DNA of 36,031 nucleotides from the IMG/VR virus record IMGVR_UViG_2519103024_000004; one strand, written 5' to 3'. Positions within the stretch are counted from its first letter, which is position 1, and each line of letters begins with the position of its first letter. The position numbers were made by a program, and so were the translations under genes. Shown piece after piece: positions 1 through 35,334 of this stretch. The notes below the pieces were generated by a model that was not told where the DNA came from, did no database searches, and saw only the letters and a list, made by a program, of their open reading frames with translations. The DNA is from a virus. Lineage: Duplodnaviria; Heunggongvirae; Uroviricota; Caudoviricetes.

Positions 1-891
1 ATGAGAGAACACAAATTTATTAGTGAGCTTTTTTTAGAAAATAGTCAATTTATTCTTATTGGTTTAACTGGGAGAACTGGCTCAGGATGTACTACTGCAG
101 CAAATATTTTAGAACAAAAAGAAATATCTTTTCCAGATAGTAACGTCTTGGCTGAGTATTATAAAGGATTGGATTTGCGGCGTTATGAAATAGTAAAAAA
201 TTTTGCAGAGACTCATTGGAAGAACTTCTATTCGATAAAGGTCAGTGATCTCATTTCAATATATTTGCTCCTTTTATCTCCATCGGCCTTAGCTAAATTC
301 ATTCAGTTTTCTGCAAGTAAAATCCCCGATAAAAAAGAAAATTCGATTTCCTTTAAGGCAGCCAAGAAACTGGTTGTTAATGGTGTGTTCGCTAAAAGTT
401 TGTTGAAGATAAAATATCTTAAGGTGATAAAAAATCTTCTTAATCATGATGATGAGATTGACTTTAAAGGCAGGGGGAAAGATACCTTTATTAGGATATT
501 AACTCTTACTCGAAAATTTACACGGGATTTTAAAAGGGAATTAAATGAACTAGAGCCAGGTTTATATATTGAGCTATATCAGTCAGCAGGAAAGTCAATT
601 AGAAGAATAGGGAAGGTTGATGTAGATTATGAAAATCAAGACTTTATTCCAAAGGCTGTTTTTCATTTGCCTGAAACAATTAATCGTGTTATTAAAATAA
701 TTAGAAAAGTAAAGAATAATAAAGCGTATATAGTCATTGATGCGATACGTAACCCGTATGAAGCTAAATTCTTCAAAGATAGATATGCTGCATTCCATCT
801 GGTTTCTATAAATGCACCAGATGAACATCGAACCAGATATTTAAAGAAATTACATAAGTTCTCAGAGGAACAGATAAAAAAAATTAAATGA
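1..891 (+). CDS. P-loop NTPase / nucleotide-kinase-like protein; possible N-terminal half of a kinase-deaminase fusion
   Basis: 296-aa ORF starting at window base 1; Walker-A-like GLTGRTGSGCTT near the N-terminus; AT-rich; ends at TGA 889-891 just after an A8 run (876-883); frame 2 is open from 878 into the downstream deaminase ORF. Confidence 0.5.
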   Translation: MREHKFISELFLENSQFILIGLTGRTGSGCTTAANILEQKEISFPDSNVLAEYYKGLDLRRYEIVKNFAETHWKNFYSIKVSDLISIYLLLLSPSALAKFIQFSASKIPDKKENSISFKAAKKLVVNGVFAKSLLKIKYLKVIKNLLNHDDEIDFKGRGKDTFIRILTLTRKFTRDFKRELNELEPGLYIELYQSAGKSIRRIGKVDVDYENQDFIPKAVFHLPETINRVIKIIRKVKNNKAYIVIDAIRNPYEAKFFKDRYAAFHLVSINAPDEHRTRYLKKLHKFSEEQIKKIK

Positions 892-1048
892 TGAAGAATC
901 TGGTAAAGGAGATGGCGAGTATAATCATCTTACTAATCCTAATGTAAAAAAATGCATTGAAATTTCAGATATACATTTTTTTAACCCTAAAAAAGAATTT
1001 GATAATAATAATTTTCTCAAAGCACAAATTGCGTGGTATGTATCATTA

Positions 1049-1759
1049 ATGCAACACCCTGGATTAATATCTCCTACCGCCATGGAAAGGGTTATGCAAG
1101 TTGCATATACTGTAAAACTAAATTCTGGATGTATATCTAGGCAAGTAGGGGCGGTTGTGACAGATAATGATAACTCTATCAAGTCAGTTGGTTGGAACGA
1201 TGTAGCAAAAGGTCAAGTTCCTTGTTCTATGAGGTCATTTGATGGGTTATTGCATGATTTTGATGAGGGAACATATAGCCTGTACGAACGAAGTAATACA
1301 AAATTTAGGAGTAAAGTTAAAGAAAATTTAATAAAAATAAGGGCGAGTGATTCAAGTTCTACTGTTTTTAAAGGACTTAATTTGCCATATTGTTTTAAAG
1401 ATATTCACAACAGCCTTGATGATGAAAAGAAAGGGAATCAAGTGCATACCCGTGCATTGCACGCAGAGGAGAATGCTTTTTTGCAATTGGCCAAATATGG
1501 TGGGGTCGGTATTAATGGAGGGAAACTATATACTACAGCTAGCCCTTGTGAACTTTGTGCTAAAAAAGCTTATCAGTTAGGTATGACAGAGATTATTTTT
1601 ATCGATCCATATCCTGGTATAGCGCAAGAACATATTATTAATATCGGTAGCTTTTCCCCTAAACTTATTCAATTTAGGGGTGCAATTGGAAAATCCTACC
1701 ATAGACTTTATGAGCAAGTTATACCTATGAAGGATGAATTGGATTACTTGATGAAATAG
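1049..1759 (+). CDS. cytidine/deoxycytidylate deaminase-family zinc-binding protein
   Basis: 236-aa ORF with HAEENA (H-A-E) and SPCELCAKK (PCxxC) motifs typical of CMP/dCMP deaminases; same frame is open upstream to 878, so the annotated Met may not be the true N-terminus. Confidence 0.6.
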   Translation: MQHPGLISPTAMERVMQVAYTVKLNSGCISRQVGAVVTDNDNSIKSVGWNDVAKGQVPCSMRSFDGLLHDFDEGTYSLYERSNTKFRSKVKENLIKIRASDSSSTVFKGLNLPYCFKDIHNSLDDEKKGNQVHTRALHAEENAFLQLAKYGGVGINGGKLYTTASPCELCAKKAYQLGMTEIIFIDPYPGIAQEHIINIGSFSPKLIQFRGAIGKSYHRLYEQVIPMKDELDYLMK

Positions 1760-1772
1760 AATTTTGGCTGTT

Positions 1773-2786
1773 TTATATCAAGTTTAATGGGTTCTTAGTA
1801 ACGGCATCTTCAAGATGATCTGGTGAGAAATGTGAGTAAACCATGGTCATCTTGATATCCGAATGTCCCAAAATATCCCTTAGCACAAGTATGTTCCCGC
1901 CATTCATCATAAAGTGGCTAGCAAACGTATGTCGCAGCACGTGGGTGCATTGGCCATCCGGTAGATCTATACCTGCCCGTTTTACTGCTCGTTCAAAGGC
2001 TTTTCTACATGGTGAGAATAACTTCCCTCTGTTCTTTGGGAGTTCGTCATACAGCTCCTGTGATATGGGTACTGTTCTGTTTTTCTTGCCTTTTGTTTTT
2101 GTATAAGTAATTCGGTATTTCGATATTTGGTGGCCCTGCAGATTTTCGGCTTCACTCCACCGTGCGCCAGTAGCTAGGCATATTTTTGCAATCATTAGTA
2201 AGCTAGGGTTTTGAGATTCAGCACATGCCGCCAACAGGCGCTTGATTTCGTCCGTGGAAAGAAAAGCCAGCTCACCTTCGGCAATTTTGAAGGTCGGAAG
2301 TCCTGCCAGCGGGTTTGGTGCTGACCAGTGTCCTAGTTTTTTTAATGTACCGAACACAGATGATAGATTGCGCTGTTCAAGGTTTACCGTACGGGGCTTT
2401 ACGGGCGACATAAGTGTGCCATCTTCATTTCGTATTTCACCTTTTAACCGTGCTTCGCGGTATTTTGTAAAGTCACCAGCTGTCAGTTCTGAGGCGATGG
2501 GATCGCCTAGACCATTACAGATAATTCTAAGTTTCGCCATGAGGCGCTTGGGGTCTGCGAGTGTTTGACCATACAGGGAATACCAAAGCTCAATTAATTC
2601 TGATAGGCGTCGCCGATCATCCTTTTCACCCAACCACGGTTTTTTATTCACTTCTTCCATTGTGAAGCTTTCAAACGCAATGGCTTCGCCTTTCGTAGCA
2701 AATTGCTTACGCACGCGCTTGCCATTGCGTCCATTGGGATAGCACTCACACAACCATTTTCCGTTCGGCTGTTTTCTGATGGTCAT
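1773..2786 (-). CDS. int: tyrosine integrase (P2-family site-specific recombinase)
   Basis: 337-aa ORF with C-terminal HVLRHTFASH (HxxR) and MTMVYSH (Tyr) motifs; sits downstream of the repressor on the same strand as in P2 C-int. Confidence 0.9.
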   Translation of the reverse strand: MTIRKQPNGKWLCECYPNGRNGKRVRKQFATKGEAIAFESFTMEEVNKKPWLGEKDDRRRLSELIELWYSLYGQTLADPKRLMAKLRIICNGLGDPIASELTAGDFTKYREARLKGEIRNEDGTLMSPVKPRTVNLEQRNLSSVFGTLKKLGHWSAPNPLAGLPTFKIAEGELAFLSTDEIKRLLAACAESQNPSLLMIAKICLATGARWSEAENLQGHQISKYRITYTKTKGKKNRTVPISQELYDELPKNRGKLFSPCRKAFERAVKRAGIDLPDGQCTHVLRHTFASHFMMNGGNILVLRDILGHSDIKMTMVYSHFSPDHLEDAVTKNPLNLI

Positions 2787-2787
2787 A

Positions 2788-3153
2788 TCAAAGGCTCTTA
2801 ATGATTTTCAGTGCGCGGCCTACTACCTCAATGTCATCCAGACCGCACTCAAACGATGAATCATCCTGATGCACTACTAATTTGTTTCCCGGGAGCCGAG
2901 TCAATTTAACAATGCTTTTTATCCCGTCGATATCGACTAACCACATACCATTTACTGGTGGTGTTTGGTTGCGATCTATTAAATAAGAATCACCAGAAGT
3001 AGTCACCAGCAGTAGGTTGCTTGAGTCTGAGGGGAGTATGCTGCTATCAATGATTGCTTTTCCAGCATCGACCAATAAACCACCGTTGAGAGTCGCCTTG
3101 TCAATTTCAGGAGATACTAGTTCAGAAAGAGGTACAACCTTGCTGGAGTTCAC
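2788..3153 (-). CDS. S24/LexA-like autoproteolytic C-terminal domain of a CI-type repressor, separated from the HTH ORF by an apparent frameshift
   Basis: 121-aa ORF with GTG start; TSGDSY (Ser nucleophile context) and VKLTRLPGNK...SSFE resemble the LexA/lambda-CI S24 domain; its frame opens within an A7 run (minus strand, plus 3164-3170) where the HTH ORF ends. Confidence 0.55.
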   Translation of the reverse strand: MNSSKVVPLSELVSPEIDKATLNGGLLVDAGKAIIDSSILPSDSSNLLLVTTSGDSYLIDRNQTPPVNGMWLVDIDGIKSIVKLTRLPGNKLVVHQDDSSFECGLDDIEVVGRALKIIKSL

Positions 3154-3419
3154 GGAATTGATATTTTTTTAGGTTTAATGTTTGGACCTGGCTCTCCCTG
3201 TCCGGTGGTTAGCCACAGTAAAGAAACTCCTGTTTCCAAGGCGCACTGAATCACCCACTCTGCAGGAAAACTATCTCTTAAGTATCTGTTTGCCATGGTG
3301 CTTTTTGATGCGCCTAAGTGATCGCAAAGTTGCTGTCTGGACTTGAAATCATAGGCTGCCATTAGTCTATGGATAGCCTCTCTTCCCCCTGTATTCTCTC
3401 CAGCCTTTACCTGTATCAT
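3150..3419 (-). CDS. HTH DNA-binding N-terminal part of CI-type prophage repressor
   Basis: 89-aa ORF at the P2 C / 186 cI position, divergent from the early operon; Q-rich helix-turn-helix-like segment (SRQQLCDHLGASKSTMANR); AGGA ribosome-binding site upstream. Confidence 0.6.
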   Translation of the reverse strand: MIQVKAGENTGGREAIHRLMAAYDFKSRQQLCDHLGASKSTMANRYLRDSFPAEWVIQCALETGVSLLWLTTGQGEPGPNIKPKKISIP

Positions 3420-8629: not shown

Positions 8630-8720
8630 TTACGCGGATTAACAATTCGTGCTCTTAATAATACCAGGCATATCAGGCTGATGAACGTAAAAAACGTTTT
8701 ACATCAGTAAGATTATTATA

Positions 8721-18284: not shown

Positions 18285-18723
18285 ACTGCAGAAAGTGGAC
18301 GACTGGCTGAGTGCCTTGCTGGCGAATCTGGAGCCAGCCGCAAGAAGCCGCATGATGCGCCAGCTGGCGCAGGAACTGCGCCGGATACAGCAGCAGAACA
18401 TCAGGATGCAACGCAATCCAGATGGCAGTAGTTATGAACCGCGACGGGTAACAGCACGCAGTAAAAAGGGGCGCATCAAACGTCAGATGTTTGCAAAGCT
18501 GCGAACCACAAAATACCTGAAAACTGCCGCCAGCGCCGATTCTGCCAGCGTGCAGTTTGAAGGCAAGGTACAGCGCATTGCCCGTGTTCACCATTACGGC
18601 TTGCGTGATCGCGTCAGCCGTAAGGGGCCACAGATACGTTATGCTAAACGTAGGTTACTTGGAATTTATGATACTGATTTTGATATTATAGAAGAGATAA
18701 TCATAAATTTTTTGATTCGTTAG
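18277..18723 (+). CDS. S: tail completion protein (P2 gpS-like) with an altered, AT-rich-encoded C-terminus
   Basis: N-terminal MAELQKVDDWLSALLANL... resembles P2 S as I recall it; the last ~17 codons lie in AT-rich DNA and overlap the 3' end of the convergent cargo gene. Confidence 0.8.
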   Translation: MAELQKVDDWLSALLANLEPAARSRMMRQLAQELRRIQQQNIRMQRNPDGSSYEPRRVTARSKKGRIKRQMFAKLRTTKYLKTAASADSASVQFEGKVQRIARVHHYGLRDRVSRKGPQIRYAKRRLLGIYDTDFDIIEEIIINFLIR

Positions 18724-19861
18724 ATTCATTAATTTTCTTAAAGTATGAGTCTATTTTTTCAATTAATAAATTGATGCTTTTTATAAATTCTTTTGTTTCT
18801 TTCTCTGTTGGTTCATGTGATGTATGAGCTATTTTGTCACGTAATTCTTTCCTGTTTTTATTTGCATGTTGCCACTCAAGTGGCGCAATTTCGGGTACAG
18901 AGATGTTAAAGAGTTGTTTGAATAGTTTTTTACATCTATCATCGAACTTCCAGTTTTTATTTAATGTTTCTTTTGTCTGGCATTCATTGATACCATTGCG
19001 ATGAAAGGCATTAATAATTTTTCTGAGAATATAGCTTTCAAGGCCTGCTGATGCTTCAATTACGGCTGATCTAAATGCACCTTTATGAACAAGATTGTCT
19101 GCTCTAATCAATAATAGTTCAGGATGTTCATTGAATTCATTTGACATTAAACGTTTTTTGAAATTATCAATGAGACTTTCATCGTGTTTATACCAGCTTT
19201 CTCTCATTAATGGGGGGATTACTCCAACTAAAGGAATTGCACTTATCTTAATACCATCGCAATAATGCTCTTGTAACACTCCGTTGGTAAATCCTGAGCC
19301 AACTTGATAAAGAGATATCTCGTCTGCAAATTGATCTTTAAAGGCAACTCTATACTGTTTTATAAAGTGGTTTATTATTCCGATACATTCCTCTGATCTT
19401 TTAGGTGGAAATATCTCTCTAGCAGTTTTTATTTTTCTCTCTAACTCTATTTTTTTATCTATATCTTGCTGGCTCATTTTGGATAGGAGCATCTCAGCAT
19501 CTTCCACAGATGGGAAGTTATCTTCTTTCCTTATTTGGTTTCTTATAGAGTTGATTAGTTCTTCATGTGATATTTCTAAAAGGTCAAAACATTCCCAATA
19601 GTTGGCGAGAGAAATAATAGTCCGGCATTTCATTATCCCTCTTTCATTTGTGTGATGTGGTAGTAGTTGTTCTCTGGTACCGATTAATAGGGTTTGAGGG
19701 AATAAGCTTGCATCTTTAAATAGTGCATAGTAATCGTTGTGAACTGTTAAGCGTAAATGGTTATTTTCATATAGAAAATCATAATCACCATCTGGAATAT
19801 TGAGGACATAAGGCAACTCGACCAAGTAACGTGCAGCAAAGATCATTTCAGTCATCTTCAT
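18701..19861 (-). CDS. hypothetical 386-393-aa protein (AT-rich cargo at the S/V junction); possible HEPN-like Rx4H motif near the C-terminus
   Basis: long minus-strand ORF in a ~1.2-kb AT-rich island inside a GC-richer tail operon; likely ATG at 19859-19861 (the track's upstream start is TTG); RDKIAH fits Rx4-6H. Confidence 0.6.
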   Translation of the reverse strand: MKMTEMIFAARYLVELPYVLNIPDGDYDFLYENNHLRLTVHNDYYALFKDASLFPQTLLIGTREQLLPHHTNERGIMKCRTIISLANYWECFDLLEISHEELINSIRNQIRKEDNFPSVEDAEMLLSKMSQQDIDKKIELERKIKTAREIFPPKRSEECIGIINHFIKQYRVAFKDQFADEISLYQVGSGFTNGVLQEHYCDGIKISAIPLVGVIPPLMRESWYKHDESLIDNFKKRLMSNEFNEHPELLLIRADNLVHKGAFRSAVIEASAGLESYILRKIINAFHRNGINECQTKETLNKNWKFDDRCKKLFKQLFNISVPEIAPLEWQHANKNRKELRDKIAHTSHEPTEKETKEFIKSINLLIEKIDSYFKKINESNESKNL

Positions 19862-19874
19862 ATGAGAATTCAAT

Positions 19875-19892
19875 TGTGCCAAAAATCATACA
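19875..19892. promoter_or_regulatory. late-promoter activator site candidate (TGT-N12-ACA) upstream of V
   Basis: TGTGCCAAAAATCATACA immediately upstream of V; lies in the divergent region shared with the cargo gene. Confidence 0.4.
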
Positions 19893-22365: not shown

Positions 22366-24146
22366 GCACAAAATTTTATACCCTGCTGACGGATATTGGC
22401 GCGGCGAAACTTGCCAGCGCCGCCGCGCTCGGTGTGCCGCTAAAAATTACCCATATGGCGGTGGGCGATGGCGGCGGAGTATTGCCAACGCCGGACGCAA
22501 AGCAGACGGCACTGGTAAATGAGAAACGCCGGGCTGCGCTGAATATGCTTTATATCGACCCGCAGAACAGCAGCCAGATTATTGCTGAACAGGTGATCCC
22601 TGAAAACGAGGGCGGTTGGTGGATACGTGAAGTGGGCCTGTTTGATGAGTCCGGGGCATTGATTGCCGTGGGCAACTGCCCGGAAAGCTATAAGCCGCAA
22701 CTGGCTGAAGGCAGCGGGCGCACCCAGACCGTGCGCATGGTGCTGATTACCAGCAGTACGGACAATATCACCCTGAAAATCGACCCTGCTGTAGTGCTGG
22801 CAACCCGTAAATACGTGGATGATGAAGTCCTGGAATTAAAGCTGTATGTGGATGACCAGATGAGAAACCACATTGCCGCACAAGATCCTCATACCCAGTA
22901 TGCGCAGAAACATAATCCGACATTTACCGGAGAACCAAAAGCGCCGACGCCTGCAGCAGGAAATAACACCACGCGGATTGCGACCACTGAGTTTGTTCAG
23001 GCCGCTATTACTGCTCTGATTAACGGTGCGCCAGCCACGCTGGACACACTGAAAGAAATTGCCGCAGCCATTAACAATGACCCGAAATTCAGTACCACCA
23101 TTAACAATGCGCTGGCACTAAAAGCACCGCTGTCGAGTCCGGCACTCACCGGAACGCCAACAGCACCTACTGCGGCACAGTCGGTCAACAATACACAGAT
23201 TGCCACTACAGCTTTTGTGAAATCAGCGATTGCAGCAATGGTGGGTTCTGCACCCGCGGCACTGGATACACTGAACGAACTGGCGGCGGCACTGGGGAAT
23301 GATCCGAACTTTGCCACGACAATGCTTAATGCGCTGGCAGGTAAACAACCGCTGGACAATACGCTTACCAATTTGAGTGGAAAGGATGTAGCTGGTCTTC
23401 TCGCATACCTTGGTTTGGGAGAAGGCTCTGCATTACCTGTTGGTGTGCCTGTTCCGTGGCCCTCCGCAACCCCGCCAACGGGCTGGCTGAAATGCAACGG
23501 CGCTGCCTTTGATAAGGTGAAATATCCCCATCTTGCTACAGCATATCCATCAGGGAAACTACCTGATCTCCGTGGTGAGTTTATTCGTGGATGGGATGAC
23601 GGGCGTGGTATTGATGCAGGACGTGCTTTATTGAGCATTCAGACTGGGATGCTGGAAAAACACCGCCATATTGTTGTTGCCAACGATGGGTATGATTCAA
23701 AAGAGGAATGGGAACTGGCGACAATCTTCAGAAGAGCATATACGCAAGGCCGGGGCTTGATGCTGCCGATGCCNNNNNNNNNNNNNNNNNNNNTTGGTTT
23801 GGGAGAAGCGGCAAAAAAGAATGTGGGGACAGGGACGAATCAGATACCTGATATGGGTAGCTTCACGCTTTCTGTTTCAGGTACTGGATATCAAAAATTA
23901 CCATCTGGTTTTATTCTTCAGTGGGGCTCAATCGGCGCACCAGGCATTGCACAGGATGTGGTAACCCATTTTCCGATTGCATTTCCAAACCGATGTCTGC
24001 GTGTTTTGGTCTCACAAGACTACACACCAGATAGCGGGGCTGTTGGTTATATTGCCTGTGCAGGTTTTAGTCCCGACCCGGTTAAATTTATATCCAGAGC
24101 CAGTACTCCTGGCCTCGGCGCTTCATTTTTAGCGTTAGGCTGTTAA
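22362..24146 (+). CDS. H: tail fibre protein (P2 gpH-like); assembled ORF spans a 20-N gap, so the C-terminal part is uncertain
   Basis: Ala/Thr-rich repeats, then a tail-collar-type receptor-binding segment ([18 protein letters not shown]...[17 protein letters not shown]); Ns at 23774-23793. Confidence 0.7.
23410..23773 (+). repeat. copy A of the tail-fibre variable segment (plus orientation), truncated by the N gap
   Basis: reverse complement of 25289-25652, including the first codons of the alternative tip; differs by a one-base G-run length (G4 at 23752-23755 versus C5 at 25317-25321). Confidence 0.6.
23774..23793. other. assembly gap (20 N)
   Basis: run of n characters in the sequence. 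Confidence 0.99.
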
Positions 24147-24167
24147 TTTAGCTATATGGAGTGAAAA

Positions 24168-24608
24168 ATGAATTACATATATTCCGCGACTACAAACTCT
24201 TTCTATCCGCTGGAGATGAAAGAGGATTACACTCAAGCTGACTCATGGCCAGATGATGCTGTTGAAGTTGATGAGCAAGTGTATATTGAGTTTTCCGGAT
24301 TACCGCCGGAAGGAAAAATCCGTATCGCTGGAGAAAATGGTTTTCCTGCATGGTCTGAAATTCCACCACCAACACATGAGGAACAGATTGCTGCAGCCGA
24401 ACTGGAAAAGCAGCAACTGATTAATCAGGCCAACGATTATATGAACAGTAAACAATGGCCTGGTAAAGCGGCTATTGGTCGTCTGAAAGGTGAGGAACTG
24501 GCGCAATATAATCTGTGGCTGGATTATCTGGACGCACTGGAGCTGGTCGATACTTCCAGTGCGCCAGATATTGAATGGCCTACGCCTCCGGCAGTTCAGG
24601 CCAGATGA
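24168..24608 (+). CDS. tail fibre assembly chaperone
   Basis: 146-aa ORF directly after the fibre gene; C-terminal ...LDYLDALELVDTSSAPDIEWPTPP typical of Tfa proteins. Confidence 0.75.
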   Translation: MNYIYSATTNSFYPLEMKEDYTQADSWPDDAVEVDEQVYIEFSGLPPEGKIRIAGENGFPAWSEIPPPTHEEQIAAAELEKQQLINQANDYMNSKQWPGKAAIGRLKGEELAQYNLWLDYLDALELVDTSSAPDIEWPTPPAVQAR

Positions 24609-25182
24609 CATCCGGCGCGGTGCTGGTATCTGTTGCCGTCACCGCGTCAATGTAATCCAGCACAGCGTTAAGCCGGGTTGTTTCTGCCTGCGTCAGTTTC
24701 CGCCCGGCCTGTAATTTCAGCTGAATCAGACTAATGGAAGCCATTGCTGCATCAATCAGTGACTGGCGCTGTGCTTCTGCCGCTTCTACTGCGGCACCGT
24801 GTTGTGCCTCAGAATCTGTCACCCATTTCTCACCATCCCATTTATCATATGGCGTTAACGGGACGATAGTGGTTGTATTTTCAGGGTAATCACCCGGAGC
24901 TGTGATTTCTTTTGCTTCTCCTGTTTCGGTGCTATAGATAATTTCACCGCGATGGTCTGGCATATATTCCCATGAGTTTAAATCTACTGAACGGCAGATT
25001 GCATAACCAGCCTTATATGTGCCAGGAGCATCTAAACAGGAATATGCCGGGATACCGACACCAACGGCAAGATATTCATTTGAAGTGGAAATATATTCCC
25101 GTGTTTCACCATCATAGTTATAGACGGTAATATTCCCCGCCTTCGTGGCAATAAGTTCGCTATTTAATACGGCTTTATCCAT
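24580..25182 (-). CDS. alternative tail fibre assembly chaperone (inverted orientation)
   Basis: 200-aa ORF convergent with the other Tfa gene; C-terminal ...LDYIDAVTATDTSTAPDVIWPELP. Confidence 0.75.
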   Translation of the reverse strand: MDKAVLNSELIATKAGNITVYNYDGETREYISTSNEYLAVGVGIPAYSCLDAPGTYKAGYAICRSVDLNSWEYMPDHRGEIIYSTETGEAKEITAPGDYPENTTTIVPLTPYDKWDGEKWVTDSEAQHGAAVEAAEAQRQSLIDAAMASISLIQLKLQAGRKLTQAETTRLNAVLDYIDAVTATDTSTAPDVIWPELPEA

Positions 25183-25628
25183 TATGCAGCTCTCACGATA
25201 TAGTTAAATGCAATATTTCGTGGACGGGTTTCGCTCCCACCTGTGTTACCAATACTCCCTCGTGTATGTAGCGTTGGTGATGGAATCAGAGTTCCTCCGG
25301 CATCGGCAGCATCAAGCCCCCGGCCTTGCGTATATGCTCTTCTGAAGATTGTCGCCAGTTCCCATTCCTCTTTTGAATCATACCCATCGTTGGCAACAAC
25401 AATATGGCGGTGTTTTTCCAGCATCCCAGTCTGAATGCTCAATAAAGCACGTCCTGCATCAATACCACGCCCGTCATCCCATCCACGAATAAACTCACCA
25501 CGGAGATCAGGTAGTTTCCCTGATGGATATGCTGTAGCAAGATGGGGATATTTCACCTTATCAAAGGCAGCGCCGTTGCATTTCAGCCAGCCCGTTGGCG
25601 GGGTTGCGGAGGGCCACGGAACAGGCAC
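25182..25628 (-). CDS. alternative tail-fibre C-terminal (receptor-binding) segment, promoterless in this orientation
   Basis: 148-aa ORF with the same tail-collar motif as in H but a different tip (...DAADAGGTLIPS...NYIVRAA); arrangement as in Mu G / P1 C segments. Confidence 0.6.
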   Translation of the reverse strand: MPVPWPSATPPTGWLKCNGAAFDKVKYPHLATAYPSGKLPDLRGEFIRGWDDGRGIDAGRALLSIQTGMLEKHRHIVVANDGYDSKEEWELATIFRRAYTQGRGLDAADAGGTLIPSPTLHTRGSIGNTGGSETRPRNIAFNYIVRAA

Positions 25629-25652
25629 ACCAACAGGTAATGCAGAGCCTTC

Positions 25653-25672
25653 NNNNNNNNNNNNNNNNNNNN
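25653..25672. other. assembly gap (20 N)
   Basis: run of n characters in the sequence. Confidence 0.99.
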
Positions 25673-26084
25673 TCCCTCGTGTTATGTAGCGTTGTGATGG
25701 AATCAGAGTTCCTCCGGCACTCGGCTAGCATCCAAGCCCCCGGCCTTGCGTATATGCTCTTCTGAAGATTGTCGCCAGTTCCCATTCCTCTTTTTGAATC
25801 ATACCCATCGTTGGCAACAACAATATGGCGGTGTTTTTCCAGCATCCCAGTCTGAATGCTCAATAAAGCACGTCCTGCATCAATACCACGCCCGTCATCC
25901 CATCCACGAATAAACTCACCACGGAGATCAGGTAGTTTCCCTGATGGATATGCTGTAGCAAGATGGGGATATTTCACCTTATCAAAGGCAGCGCCGTTGC
26001 ATTTCAGCCAGCCCGTTGGCGGGGTTGCGGAGGGCCACGGAACAGGCACACCAACAGGTAATGCAGAGCCTTCTCCCAAACCAA
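25673..26084 (-). repeat. copy C of the tail-collar segment with small indels; likely assembly artefact or degenerate duplicate
   Basis: near-identical to 25243-25652 but with scattered single-base insertions and deletions; the track ORF 25561-26124 spanning the gap is chimeric. Confidence 0.45.
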
Positions 26085-26096
26085 CGTTTAAGAAAA
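26071..26096. promoter_or_regulatory. candidate invertase crossover site (gix/hix-like)
   Basis: TTCTCCCAAACCAACGTTTAAGAAAA matches about 19 of 26 positions of the hix/gix core as I recall it; its half-site TTGGTTTGGGAGAA recurs inverted at 23410 and after the N gap at 23794. Confidence 0.3.
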
Positions 26097-26145
26097 TGCA
26101 GAGGTAACAGCTAACTGGCATCATCTCCGGTTTTTATTCAGGGGG

Positions 26146-26718
26146 ATGATAATGCTTATTGGCTATGTACGCGTGTCAACAAATGACCAGAACACCGATT
26201 TGCAACGTAATGCACTGAACTGCGCGGGATGTGAGCGGATTTTTGAGGACAAAATCAGTGGTACTAAGTCCGACAGACCGGGGCTGAAAAAACTACTCAG
26301 GACACTATCGGCAGGAGACACGCTGGTTGTCTGGAAGCTGGACAGGTTGGGACGCAGTATGCGGCATCTTGTTACGCTGATAGAAGAGTTGCGCCAGCGT
26401 GGCGTGAATTTCCGAAGCCTGACTGACAGTATTGATACCAGTACCCCAATGGGCCGTTTCTTTTTTCATGTCATGGGTGCCCTGGCTGAAATGGAACGCG
26501 AACTGATAGTTGAACGTACCAGGGCGGGGATTGCTGCAGCTCGCGACAAAGGCAGAGTAGGTGGACGCCGTCCTAAGTTGACCACCGAACAGTGGGCACA
26601 GATTGGACGTTTACTAGAGGCCGGAGAATCAAGACAGCGTATTGCACTGATTTTTGATGTGGGCGTTTCTACCATTTATAGAAAATTTCCGGCAAATAAG
26701 AGCAGTGAATCCCCCTGA
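26146..26718 (+). CDS. serine recombinase, DNA invertase (Gin/Hin/Pin/Cin family)
   Basis: 190-aa ORF starting MLIGYVRVSTNDQ... with catalytic-Ser context and C-terminal HTH; adjacent to the inverted fibre segments. Confidence 0.9.
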   Translation: MIMLIGYVRVSTNDQNTDLQRNALNCAGCERIFEDKISGTKSDRPGLKKLLRTLSAGDTLVVWKLDRLGRSMRHLVTLIEELRQRGVNFRSLTDSIDTSTPMGRFFFHVMGALAEMERELIVERTRAGIAAARDKGRVGGRRPKLTTEQWAQIGRLLEAGESRQRIALIFDVGVSTIYRKFPANKSSESP

Positions 26719-34084: not shown

Positions 34085-34798
34085 TTATTTGATTTTAAAT
34101 ATTTCATGAATAGAGAACTCTTTTAATTCATTGCTTTCGTCTTCAACTCTGGTCTTTTCTTCATTAAATTCGTTAAATAACTCATCAAATGGTCTATGAG
34201 TTAAAGAGTTGTATGGGGAGTTAGGGTTTATTTCATTTATTAGTGCGATATACATATTTGTTGCCTGCATGCCTAACTCAAAAACATCAGCGGTAAGTTG
34301 GTTTAGTCTTATTCCTTTTTCTGTGTTTAAGCTTATATTCCAACGAGTTAATGAGCCAATTATAGATCTTGCCTTGTAGGCTGAACTTGTTGCTTTTTCA
34401 ATGTTTTTTGCTGCTTCATCGAGCTGTTTAACTAACTGAGGGTCCTTGGGGTTATTAGTGTTTTTATAAATCTTAATAAGTGTCATATTTAAAAATAAGC
34501 TTGAAAAACTATCTATGCAATCATCGAGAGACATCAATGCTGTATCTATTTTACTAATGGCATTATCGGATAGTTTATCTTTAAATAAGTTTTTGAATGC
34601 ACGAACGGCGTAGGTAGCTAAAATAATATTTGTTGTAGCTATTATAATGTCACTTACAGTCCCCGTATAGTTTGGGGCAATGCTTAATGAACGAAGGCAA
34701 AGATAAATAAACTGCATACAGGCTAAGATTAAAAGGACAAAAACTATTATCACAAGATATCTATTAACTGGCATTTTTTTGTTCAGGTTGAAGTCCAT
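34085..34798 (-). CDS. hypothetical membrane-anchored protein (AT-rich cargo between ogr and ssrA)
   Basis: 237-aa ORF with one or two N-terminal hydrophobic helices and a charged helical C-terminal region; AT-rich. Confidence 0.55.
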   Translation of the reverse strand: MDFNLNKKMPVNRYLVIIVFVLLILACMQFIYLCLRSLSIAPNYTGTVSDIIIATTNIILATYAVRAFKNLFKDKLSDNAISKIDTALMSLDDCIDSFSSLFLNMTLIKIYKNTNNPKDPQLVKQLDEAAKNIEKATSSAYKARSIIGSLTRWNISLNTEKGIRLNQLTADVFELGMQATNMYIALINEINPNSPYNSLTHRPFDELFNEFNEEKTRVEDESNELKEFSIHEIFKIK

Positions 34799-34961: not shown

Positions 34962-35334
34962 TTGTTTTATTTGGTGGAGCTGGCGGGAGTTGAACCCGCG
35001 TCCGAAATTCCTACATCCTCGGTACTACATGCTTAGTCAGTCTTTACATTCGCTTGCCAGCTGCGGACGGACACGCCACTAACAAACTAGCCTGATTAAG
35101 TTTTAACGCTTCAACCCCAGGCAGGGCTTCCACGCGATCTCTTTTGGGTTTGACCTCTCTTGATCCCCGTCCTAAGAGCGGAGGCTAGGGAGAGAGGGCT
35201 CTAAGCAGGTTATTAAGCTGCTAAAGCGTAGTTTTCGTCGTTTGCGACTATTTTTTGCGGCTTTTTACGAGGCCAACCGCCCCTCGGCATGCACCTTGGG
35301 TTTCGCAAATCCCGTCGAATCCAGAATCAGCCCC
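34962..35334 (-). ncRNA. ssrA: tmRNA (transfer-messenger RNA)
   Basis: reverse complement begins GGGGCTGATTCTGGATTCGACGGG and ends ...GGTTCAACTCCCGCCAGCTCCACCA; encodes the ANDENYALAA tag; matches E. coli ssrA as far as I can recall. Confidence 0.9.

Follow-up and report, generated by a model that had tools for sequence, protein, structure and literature searches.

A frameshifted or mis-sequenced anti-phage dCTP deaminase gene beside the integrase of a 186/P2-like prophage

Two open reading frames are the halves of one dCTP deaminase gene

The first 1759 nucleotides of the window—the entire 36,031-nt stretch of DNA analysed here, IMG/VR virus record IMGVR_UViG_2519103024_000004—almost certainly make up one gene, which encodes an anti-phage dCTP deaminase of 585 aa. 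The ORF at 1–891 and the ORF at 1049–1759, the latter in a frame that is open from 878, are its two halves. The locus is a broken, or mis-sequenced, member of the anti-phage dCTP deaminase family: the gene is already known and lies in a known kind of place, and the one-base break is private to one assembly. The features on which the following sections draw are these:

1–891, + strand: 5′ part of the dCTP deaminase gene, with most of the kinase-like P-loop domain (296-aa ORF)
61–96, + strand: nucleotide-binding motif GLTGRTGSGCTT, residues 21–32 (from the sequence)
876–883, + strand: A8 homopolymer, the normal in-frame length in intact alleles
886–888, + strand: AAA versus AA in intact alleles, the frame-breaking insertion (from base-level comparison)
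878–1759, + strand: 3′ part of the gene, with the end of the kinase-like domain and the zinc deaminase domain (frame 2)
1460–1477, + strand: HAEENA, catalytic zinc/glutamate motif of the deaminase, residues 487–492 of the intact protein
1544–1558, + strand: PCELC, second zinc-binding motif, residues 515–519 of the intact protein
1773–2786, − strand: tyrosine integrase of the 186/P2-like prophage (Pfam Int_N and Phage_integrase)
34979–35016, no strand assigned: 38-bp att core GCTGGCGGGAGTTGAACCCGCGTCCGAAATTCCTACAT at the 3′ end of ssrA, the right prophage boundary (exact repeat)

Frame 1 starts with the ATG at window position 1 and terminates at a TGA (889–891). Frame 2 contains a TAA at 875–877, is then open from 878 to the stop at 1757–1759, and has its earliest possible start at ATG 1049, giving 236 aa. 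When the one inserted base is left out, the DNA of the gene is 100% identical to an intact allele from strain EC5502, and RefSeq labels this intact 585-aa allele "anti-phage dCTP deaminase". The same 1.8 kb is carried, at an identity of at least 99.6%, by seven of 5426 complete E. coli genomes, in which the RefSeq neighbour of the gene is a site-specific integrase. In six of these carriers, the matching stretch falls one base short of the query, as expected for an intact gene, and a 585-aa CDS is annotated in both of those six genomes whose annotation was examined. In the seventh, strain G5, RefSeq annotates the gene as frameshifted.

The original prediction, drawn from the letters of the window alone, had named the two ORFs and the GLTGRTGSGCTT, HAEENA, and PCELC motifs, all of which lie exactly where it had placed them, and had read them as one split two-domain gene of the dCTP deaminase/AvcD type. 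Profile searches bear out this reading. The intact protein scores 420.5 bits against the NCBIfam equivalog NF041025, above the cutoff of 400, and the window fragments on their own both fail it (109.8 bits, positions 1–161, and 255.4 bits). Against the PADLOC dCTPase model, the first ORF matches profile positions 145–292 (E = 1.3e-34) and the second frame positions 292–527 (E = 1.7e-106), so that the two pieces cover adjoining parts of the profile; the fused protein reaches E = 1.2e-146, a match far above chance. PHROG 8118 matches the intact protein from end to end (1168 bits). The deaminase and kinase profiles that had been suggested for a check gave 58.2 bits for Pfam dCMP_cyt_deam_1 (PF00383; cutoff 25) in the second part of the gene and, for the Pfam kinase families in the first part, sub-threshold matches only. 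One of the latter, Cytidylate_kin2, covers residues 268–315 of the fused protein and runs across the break.

Among 4383 homologues, nearly all of the best 120 are fused and 575–615 aa long, in line with the proposed architecture; the shorter entries among those listed are truncated by contig ends or labelled partial. Their hosts comprise Enterobacterales, Vibrio, Pseudomonas, and others. No near match to window positions 1–1800 was found in the INPHARED phage collection. GLTGRTGSGCTT, which includes G29 and C30, is invariant in 32 homologues and kept down to Bacteroidales proteins of 40% identity; HAEENA is invariant in the homologue alignment, as is PCELC in homologue alignment A1. The family is marked by a kinase-like N-terminal domain bearing GSGC, followed at the C-terminus by a zinc cytidine/dCMP deaminase domain. 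Both can be recognised here, the second by PF00383, HAEENA, PCELC, and fold. In members, the two domains also belong to a single polypeptide longer than 350 aa. As read, the window offers 296 aa and at most 236 aa instead; removal of one base unites the domains, as in all intact alleles.

For the fold, we relied on a structure model (mean pLDDT 76.5) of a homologue with 83% identity. The C-terminal part of the model resembles dCMP deaminases (probability 1.0; TM-score per target 0.6–0.77) and its N-terminal part dephospho-CoA kinases (probability 0.99). No solved structure of the whole family was found.

The AT-rich character of the block and its closeness to the integrase had likewise been pointed out, and both are confirmed: GC is 0.31 in positions 1–1000 and 0.38 in 1001–2000, versus 0.45–0.61 in most of the window, and the integrase, which is convergent with the deaminase gene, ends at 1773, leaving a gap of 13 bp after the deaminase stop.

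An extra A outside the A8 run breaks the frame

Compared at base level (loci L001, L002, and L004–L014), intact alleles read GAT-A8-TTAATGATG where the window reads GAT-A8-TTAAATGATG. The lesion is a change from TTAAT to TTAAAT at 884–889, with the extra A in 886–888, three bases downstream of the A8 run; it extends the AA dinucleotide at 886–887. This base puts the reading frame out of step and makes one gene read as two ORFs.

Here the original prediction needs correction. It had blamed the A8 run for the split. The run at 876–883, the frame opening at 878, and the 585-aa product of a one-A deletion are all as it described, but eight As are the wild-type, in-frame length. Deleting an A from the run also restores the 585-aa frame and gives the predicted junction QIKKLNDEES, whereas the native junction is QIKKINDEES, with an Ile that is conserved in enterobacterial homologues; it is a repair to a non-ancestral state. 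Because the natural in-frame state has A8, blaming the long run would repair the gene wrongly, and because the lesion lies outside it, a check of A-run length alone would mislead.

Between 878 and 1049 there is no start codon of any kind, and residues 297–348 (52 aa) are therefore translated in neither fragment. This stretch is predicted to be structured and, in a 32-sequence alignment, contains 16 invariant positions, among them E299, S300, G301, C318, I319, E320, D323, and H325. With 52 conserved residues absent from both fragments, the gene as read should be a null, inactive allele.

Could the two ORFs instead be two separate working genes, a stand-alone kinase-like protein and a ComEB-type or housekeeping dCMP deaminase? 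Both frames are open, and the second contains a complete deaminase domain. Yet we regard this as extremely improbable, given that nearly all listed homologues are fused, that the Cytidylate_kin2 match at residues 268–315 spans the break, and that two genes without a start at 878–1049 would forgo 52 residues, invariant positions included. Neither defence nor dCTP depletion by the tested E. coli AW1.7 enzyme occurs without both domains (bioRxiv 10.1101/2021.04.26.441389), and its defence needs them in one protein. The ComEB profile (TIGR02571) scores 41.5–44.8 bits, far under its cutoff of 219.45. Homologues in which the domains are separate genes, for example a ComEB-type deaminase, had been named beforehand as grounds for giving up the single-gene reading; the homologues turned out fused and the ComEB scores far too low.

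A housekeeping ComEB dCMP deaminase was also considered as an identity in its own right and excluded, the equivalog cutoff of TIGR02571 being missed.

Sequencing error or recent loss of function

Regarding the origin of the extra A, we lean towards an error in the deposited sequence, with the real gene intact. A competing account, to which we give appreciable though lesser weight, accepts the same gene and takes the extra A as real: the gene would then have lost its function very recently and be on its way to a pseudogene, and such a null allele might be kept or tolerated where the defence gene is costly or no longer useful.

The 296-aa fragment specific to the insertion occurs in one contig only, HE572566.1 (GCA_000285375.1), and the two commonest intact forms in 403 and 178 contigs; none of the seven other complete genomes with the gene has the insertion. 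That the lesion is private to one assembly, and that the gene shows no secondary decay changes, speaks against a real mutation. So does the reported rarity of defence pseudogenes in P2-like prophages, where they make up ~2% of pseudogenes (PMC13586616).

The same assembly contains two further private one-base homopolymer changes (CI T8 to T7; A7 to A6 at 8688). The first concerns the CI repressor (2788–3419, − strand), which is split into ORFs of 89 and 121 aa: its T run at 3164–3170 is T7 here and T8 in all 43 complete E. coli genomes with this stretch, and the intact 210-aa CI is found in 388 contigs. The second, at 8688–8693 in non-coding DNA after the replication gene, is A6 here versus A7, and none of about 1100 complete E. 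coli genomes shares it. The other prophage genes examined, including those for replication and lysis, are full-length ORFs.

A phage 186-type lysogen without CI should not be stable. A broken CI beside intact replication and lysis genes therefore suggests an error in the sequence at CI, which raises the odds of an error at 886 as well; conversely, a real mutation at 886 would co-occur with a private CI frameshift that is hard to square with a stable lysogen. T7 in CI recurs in just one other contig, from Logan ERR4565137 (L029). This contig is without the 886 insertion and contains three more one-base deletions in homopolymers that are its own; all it demonstrates is how readily T8 to T7 can arise as an error.

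Other observations favour a genuine mutation. The 9.7-kb left core-genome flank of the assembly is 100% identical to other strains; this flank has no run of seven or more bases, however, and is therefore uninformative on homopolymer errors. Independent inactivating lesions of the same gene are found in separate datasets, and the change from AA to AAA concerns a short run, unlike the classic miscall in a long homopolymer, which weakens the case for an error. Real slippage mutations, too, concentrate at homopolymers.

Frameshifts recur at the A8 run in other datasets

The gene is broken in other ways elsewhere. The A8 run is shortened to A7, with no other indel, in five assemblies from different samples (L006, L007, L008, L010, and L011), giving ORFs of 314 and 236 aa. 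The A7-specific 314-aa fragment occurs in 15 contigs, including E. fergusonii. With A7 present in two or more haplotypes (669G and 669A), frameshifts at this run seem to recur in nature. A nonsense change (L349*) in L005 and a −1 at position 532 in L012 add further broken alleles, and such independent lesions imply that genuine inactivation does happen. These recurrent A7 alleles point to a weak point of the AT-rich gene at the run, which may bear on the loss of defence genes.

Strain G5 (L003/L015) has three one-base deletions, at gene positions 876, 945, and 975, all in runs of 7–8 bases. Long-read consensus errors typically look like this, and the "frameshifted" label of this strain may be an artefact.

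The behaviour of the run raises the thought that a real frameshift in the window copy might be partly rescued or switched through A8, by RNA polymerase or ribosome slippage or by mutation from A8 to A7. The tract would then act as a switch, on/off or for low-level expression, of a costly defence gene. One A fewer does restore the full 585-aa frame, the length of the run varies in natural data (the A7 alleles), and A/T runs allow slippage. We nevertheless judge such a rescue very unlikely. The slippery site is not conserved across homologues: those of 75% identity read ATC or ATT followed by AAA AAA (A7 after C or T), with no A-AAA-AAA heptamer, and Vibrio homologues have no A run. Eight As are, moreover, short for efficient slippage or useful rates of phase variation, and intact alleles far outnumber shifted ones.

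A contingency-locus-like version, in which the A8 region would serve as a mutational on/off switch controlling nucleotide depletion, strikes us as equally doubtful, with little probability attached. Here, A7 and +1 alleles would be OFF, and the window allele could return to ON by mutation from A8 to A7 (with QIKKLNDEES at the junction). In contingency loci the slippery tract is conserved beyond what the protein needs; this tract is not.

Programmed −1/+1 frameshifting at A-AAA-AAA was examined as a separate candidate and rejected, as the run is not conserved in homologue DNA. The run of the window, ATA AAA AAA ATT, does form an A-AAA-AAA heptamer and is specific to its own allele; its −1 frame stops at once.

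The gene is cargo of a prophage integrated at ssrA

The deaminase gene is followed in the window by a complete 186/P2-like prophage and then by ssrA (tmRNA, 34972–35334) and smpB. In the source genome, a left copy of the att core (attL), identical over all 38 bp, lies 222–260 bp upstream of window position 1, the deaminase ATG. Six loci, from the source genome and five relatives, have different left neighbours (ypjA, csiD, other integrases), and their upstream sequences become identical exactly at the att core. The core thus lies upstream of the gene whatever the left flank, which makes the gene prophage cargo between attL and int; in relatives, the gene at 1773–2786 is annotated as a site-specific integrase. 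As accessory cargo, the deaminase gene thus occupies the space between att and integrase in a 186/P2-like prophage whose integration site is ssrA. This region is a published minor defence hotspot of P2, with ~3% of P2 defence systems (NAR 2026, PMC13586616). The survey that described it finds defence pseudogenes rare, whereas the copy here reads as a pseudogene.

In the E. coli type strain DSM 30083 (L031, 12700–15700), whose left flank is identical, the slot contains different cargo: two hypothetical proteins (303 and 199 aa) and a STAS-like domain protein are encoded there, adjoining another integrase.

Three further regions of the prophage deserve description. An AT-rich 393-aa ORF (GC ~0.35; 18701–19882, − strand) lies between the tail-completion and baseplate genes and has no Pfam or PADLOC family, matching only PHROG 28299 (unknown function). 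The spot looks like another cargo slot, because relatives carry other genes or none there. Between ogr and the right att, an AT-rich 237-aa ORF (34085–34798, − strand) has no match in Pfam, PADLOC, or PHROGs; the same position is taken by a hypothetical protein of the same size in strain 127 and by a different one in strain G5. Finally, 23398–26718 is an invertible tail-fibre region, the usual host-range switch of phages of the P2, Mu, and P1 type, with perfect 335-nt inverted repeats (23421–23755 and 25318–25652) and a second pair of 305 nt, adjoining a Hin/Cin-type serine recombinase (26146–26718).

The locus should be annotated as an anti-phage dCTP deaminase, frameshifted or mis-sequenced, that occupies the att-integrase slot of a 186-like prophage integrating at ssrA. 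The case has little import beyond annotation; a defence-system census that counts intact genes alone would miss the window copy.

Comparison with known dCTP deaminases

By analogy with its family, the intact protein would combine an N-terminal kinase-like P-loop domain with a C-terminal zinc dCMP/dCTP deaminase domain, both of them needed, and would be silent in uninfected cells. Upon shut-off of host transcription by a phage, it would convert dCTP and dCMP to dUTP and dUMP, and the loss of dC nucleotides would starve phage DNA replication. Depletion of dCTP together with phage resistance is known for the AW1.7, U09, and AvcD homologues only.

AvcD of V. cholerae, V. parahaemolyticus, and ETEC belongs to the same protein family, and its outcome is likewise dC nucleotide depletion upon phage-induced transcription shut-off (Hsueh et al.; PMC10511110). 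Vibrio homologues among the best 120 of 4383 are 66–69% identical to the protein here. AvcD is inhibited by an adjacent small RNA, AvcI, of ~171–300 nt (PMC10511110). The leader of the gene in the source genome measures 222 nt from att core to ATG and lies outside the window. An Rfam scan of the upstream region of the source genome, with libraries from which AvcI is absent, returned only the tmRNA fragment that forms att. Aligning the upstream regions of 12 homologues revealed no shared element and none conserved with the source leader, and a promoter and terminator scan of the upstream leader performed no better than on shuffled sequence. Neither the source genome nor its relatives showed any sign of an AvcI-like RNA in this upstream DNA. 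For the AW1.7 construct, 83 nt upstream of the gene were enough.

Housekeeping and phage dCMP deaminases (T4 Cd, S-TIM5, human DCTD, ComEB) are alike in their C-terminal fold and zinc motifs; they are single-domain proteins of 135–190 aa, unlike the two-domain gene described here.

The E. coli AW1.7 enzyme has the same layout, with an N-terminal kinase-like domain containing GSGC and a C-terminal zinc deaminase. Its G29A/C30A mutant lost defence (Tal et al. preprint, bioRxiv 10.1101/2021.04.26.441389). G29 and C30 have identical numbering in the protein here, and C370 and C401 of AW1.7 align with its C377 and C408; all four correspond to residues whose mutation abolished defence. The preprint reportedly appeared later in Nat Microbiol 2022. 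The first 105 residues of AW1.7 are identical to those of homologue L020. Overall identity between L020 and the intact allele is 75%, placing the latter at ~75% identity to the group that includes the tested enzyme. AW1.7 is 576 aa long and has another genomic context; the allele here encodes 585 aa, and its copy in the window carries the frameshift.

The study that tested AW1.7 also validated the dCTP deaminase of E. coli U09, a 577-aa allele that occupies the same slot as the gene described here. Over the first ~400 nt, the portion compared, its synthesized construct shares the chromosomal flank and all 38 bp of the ssrA att core, and a homologous phage arm precedes the gene; the leader diverges ~115 bp after the att core.
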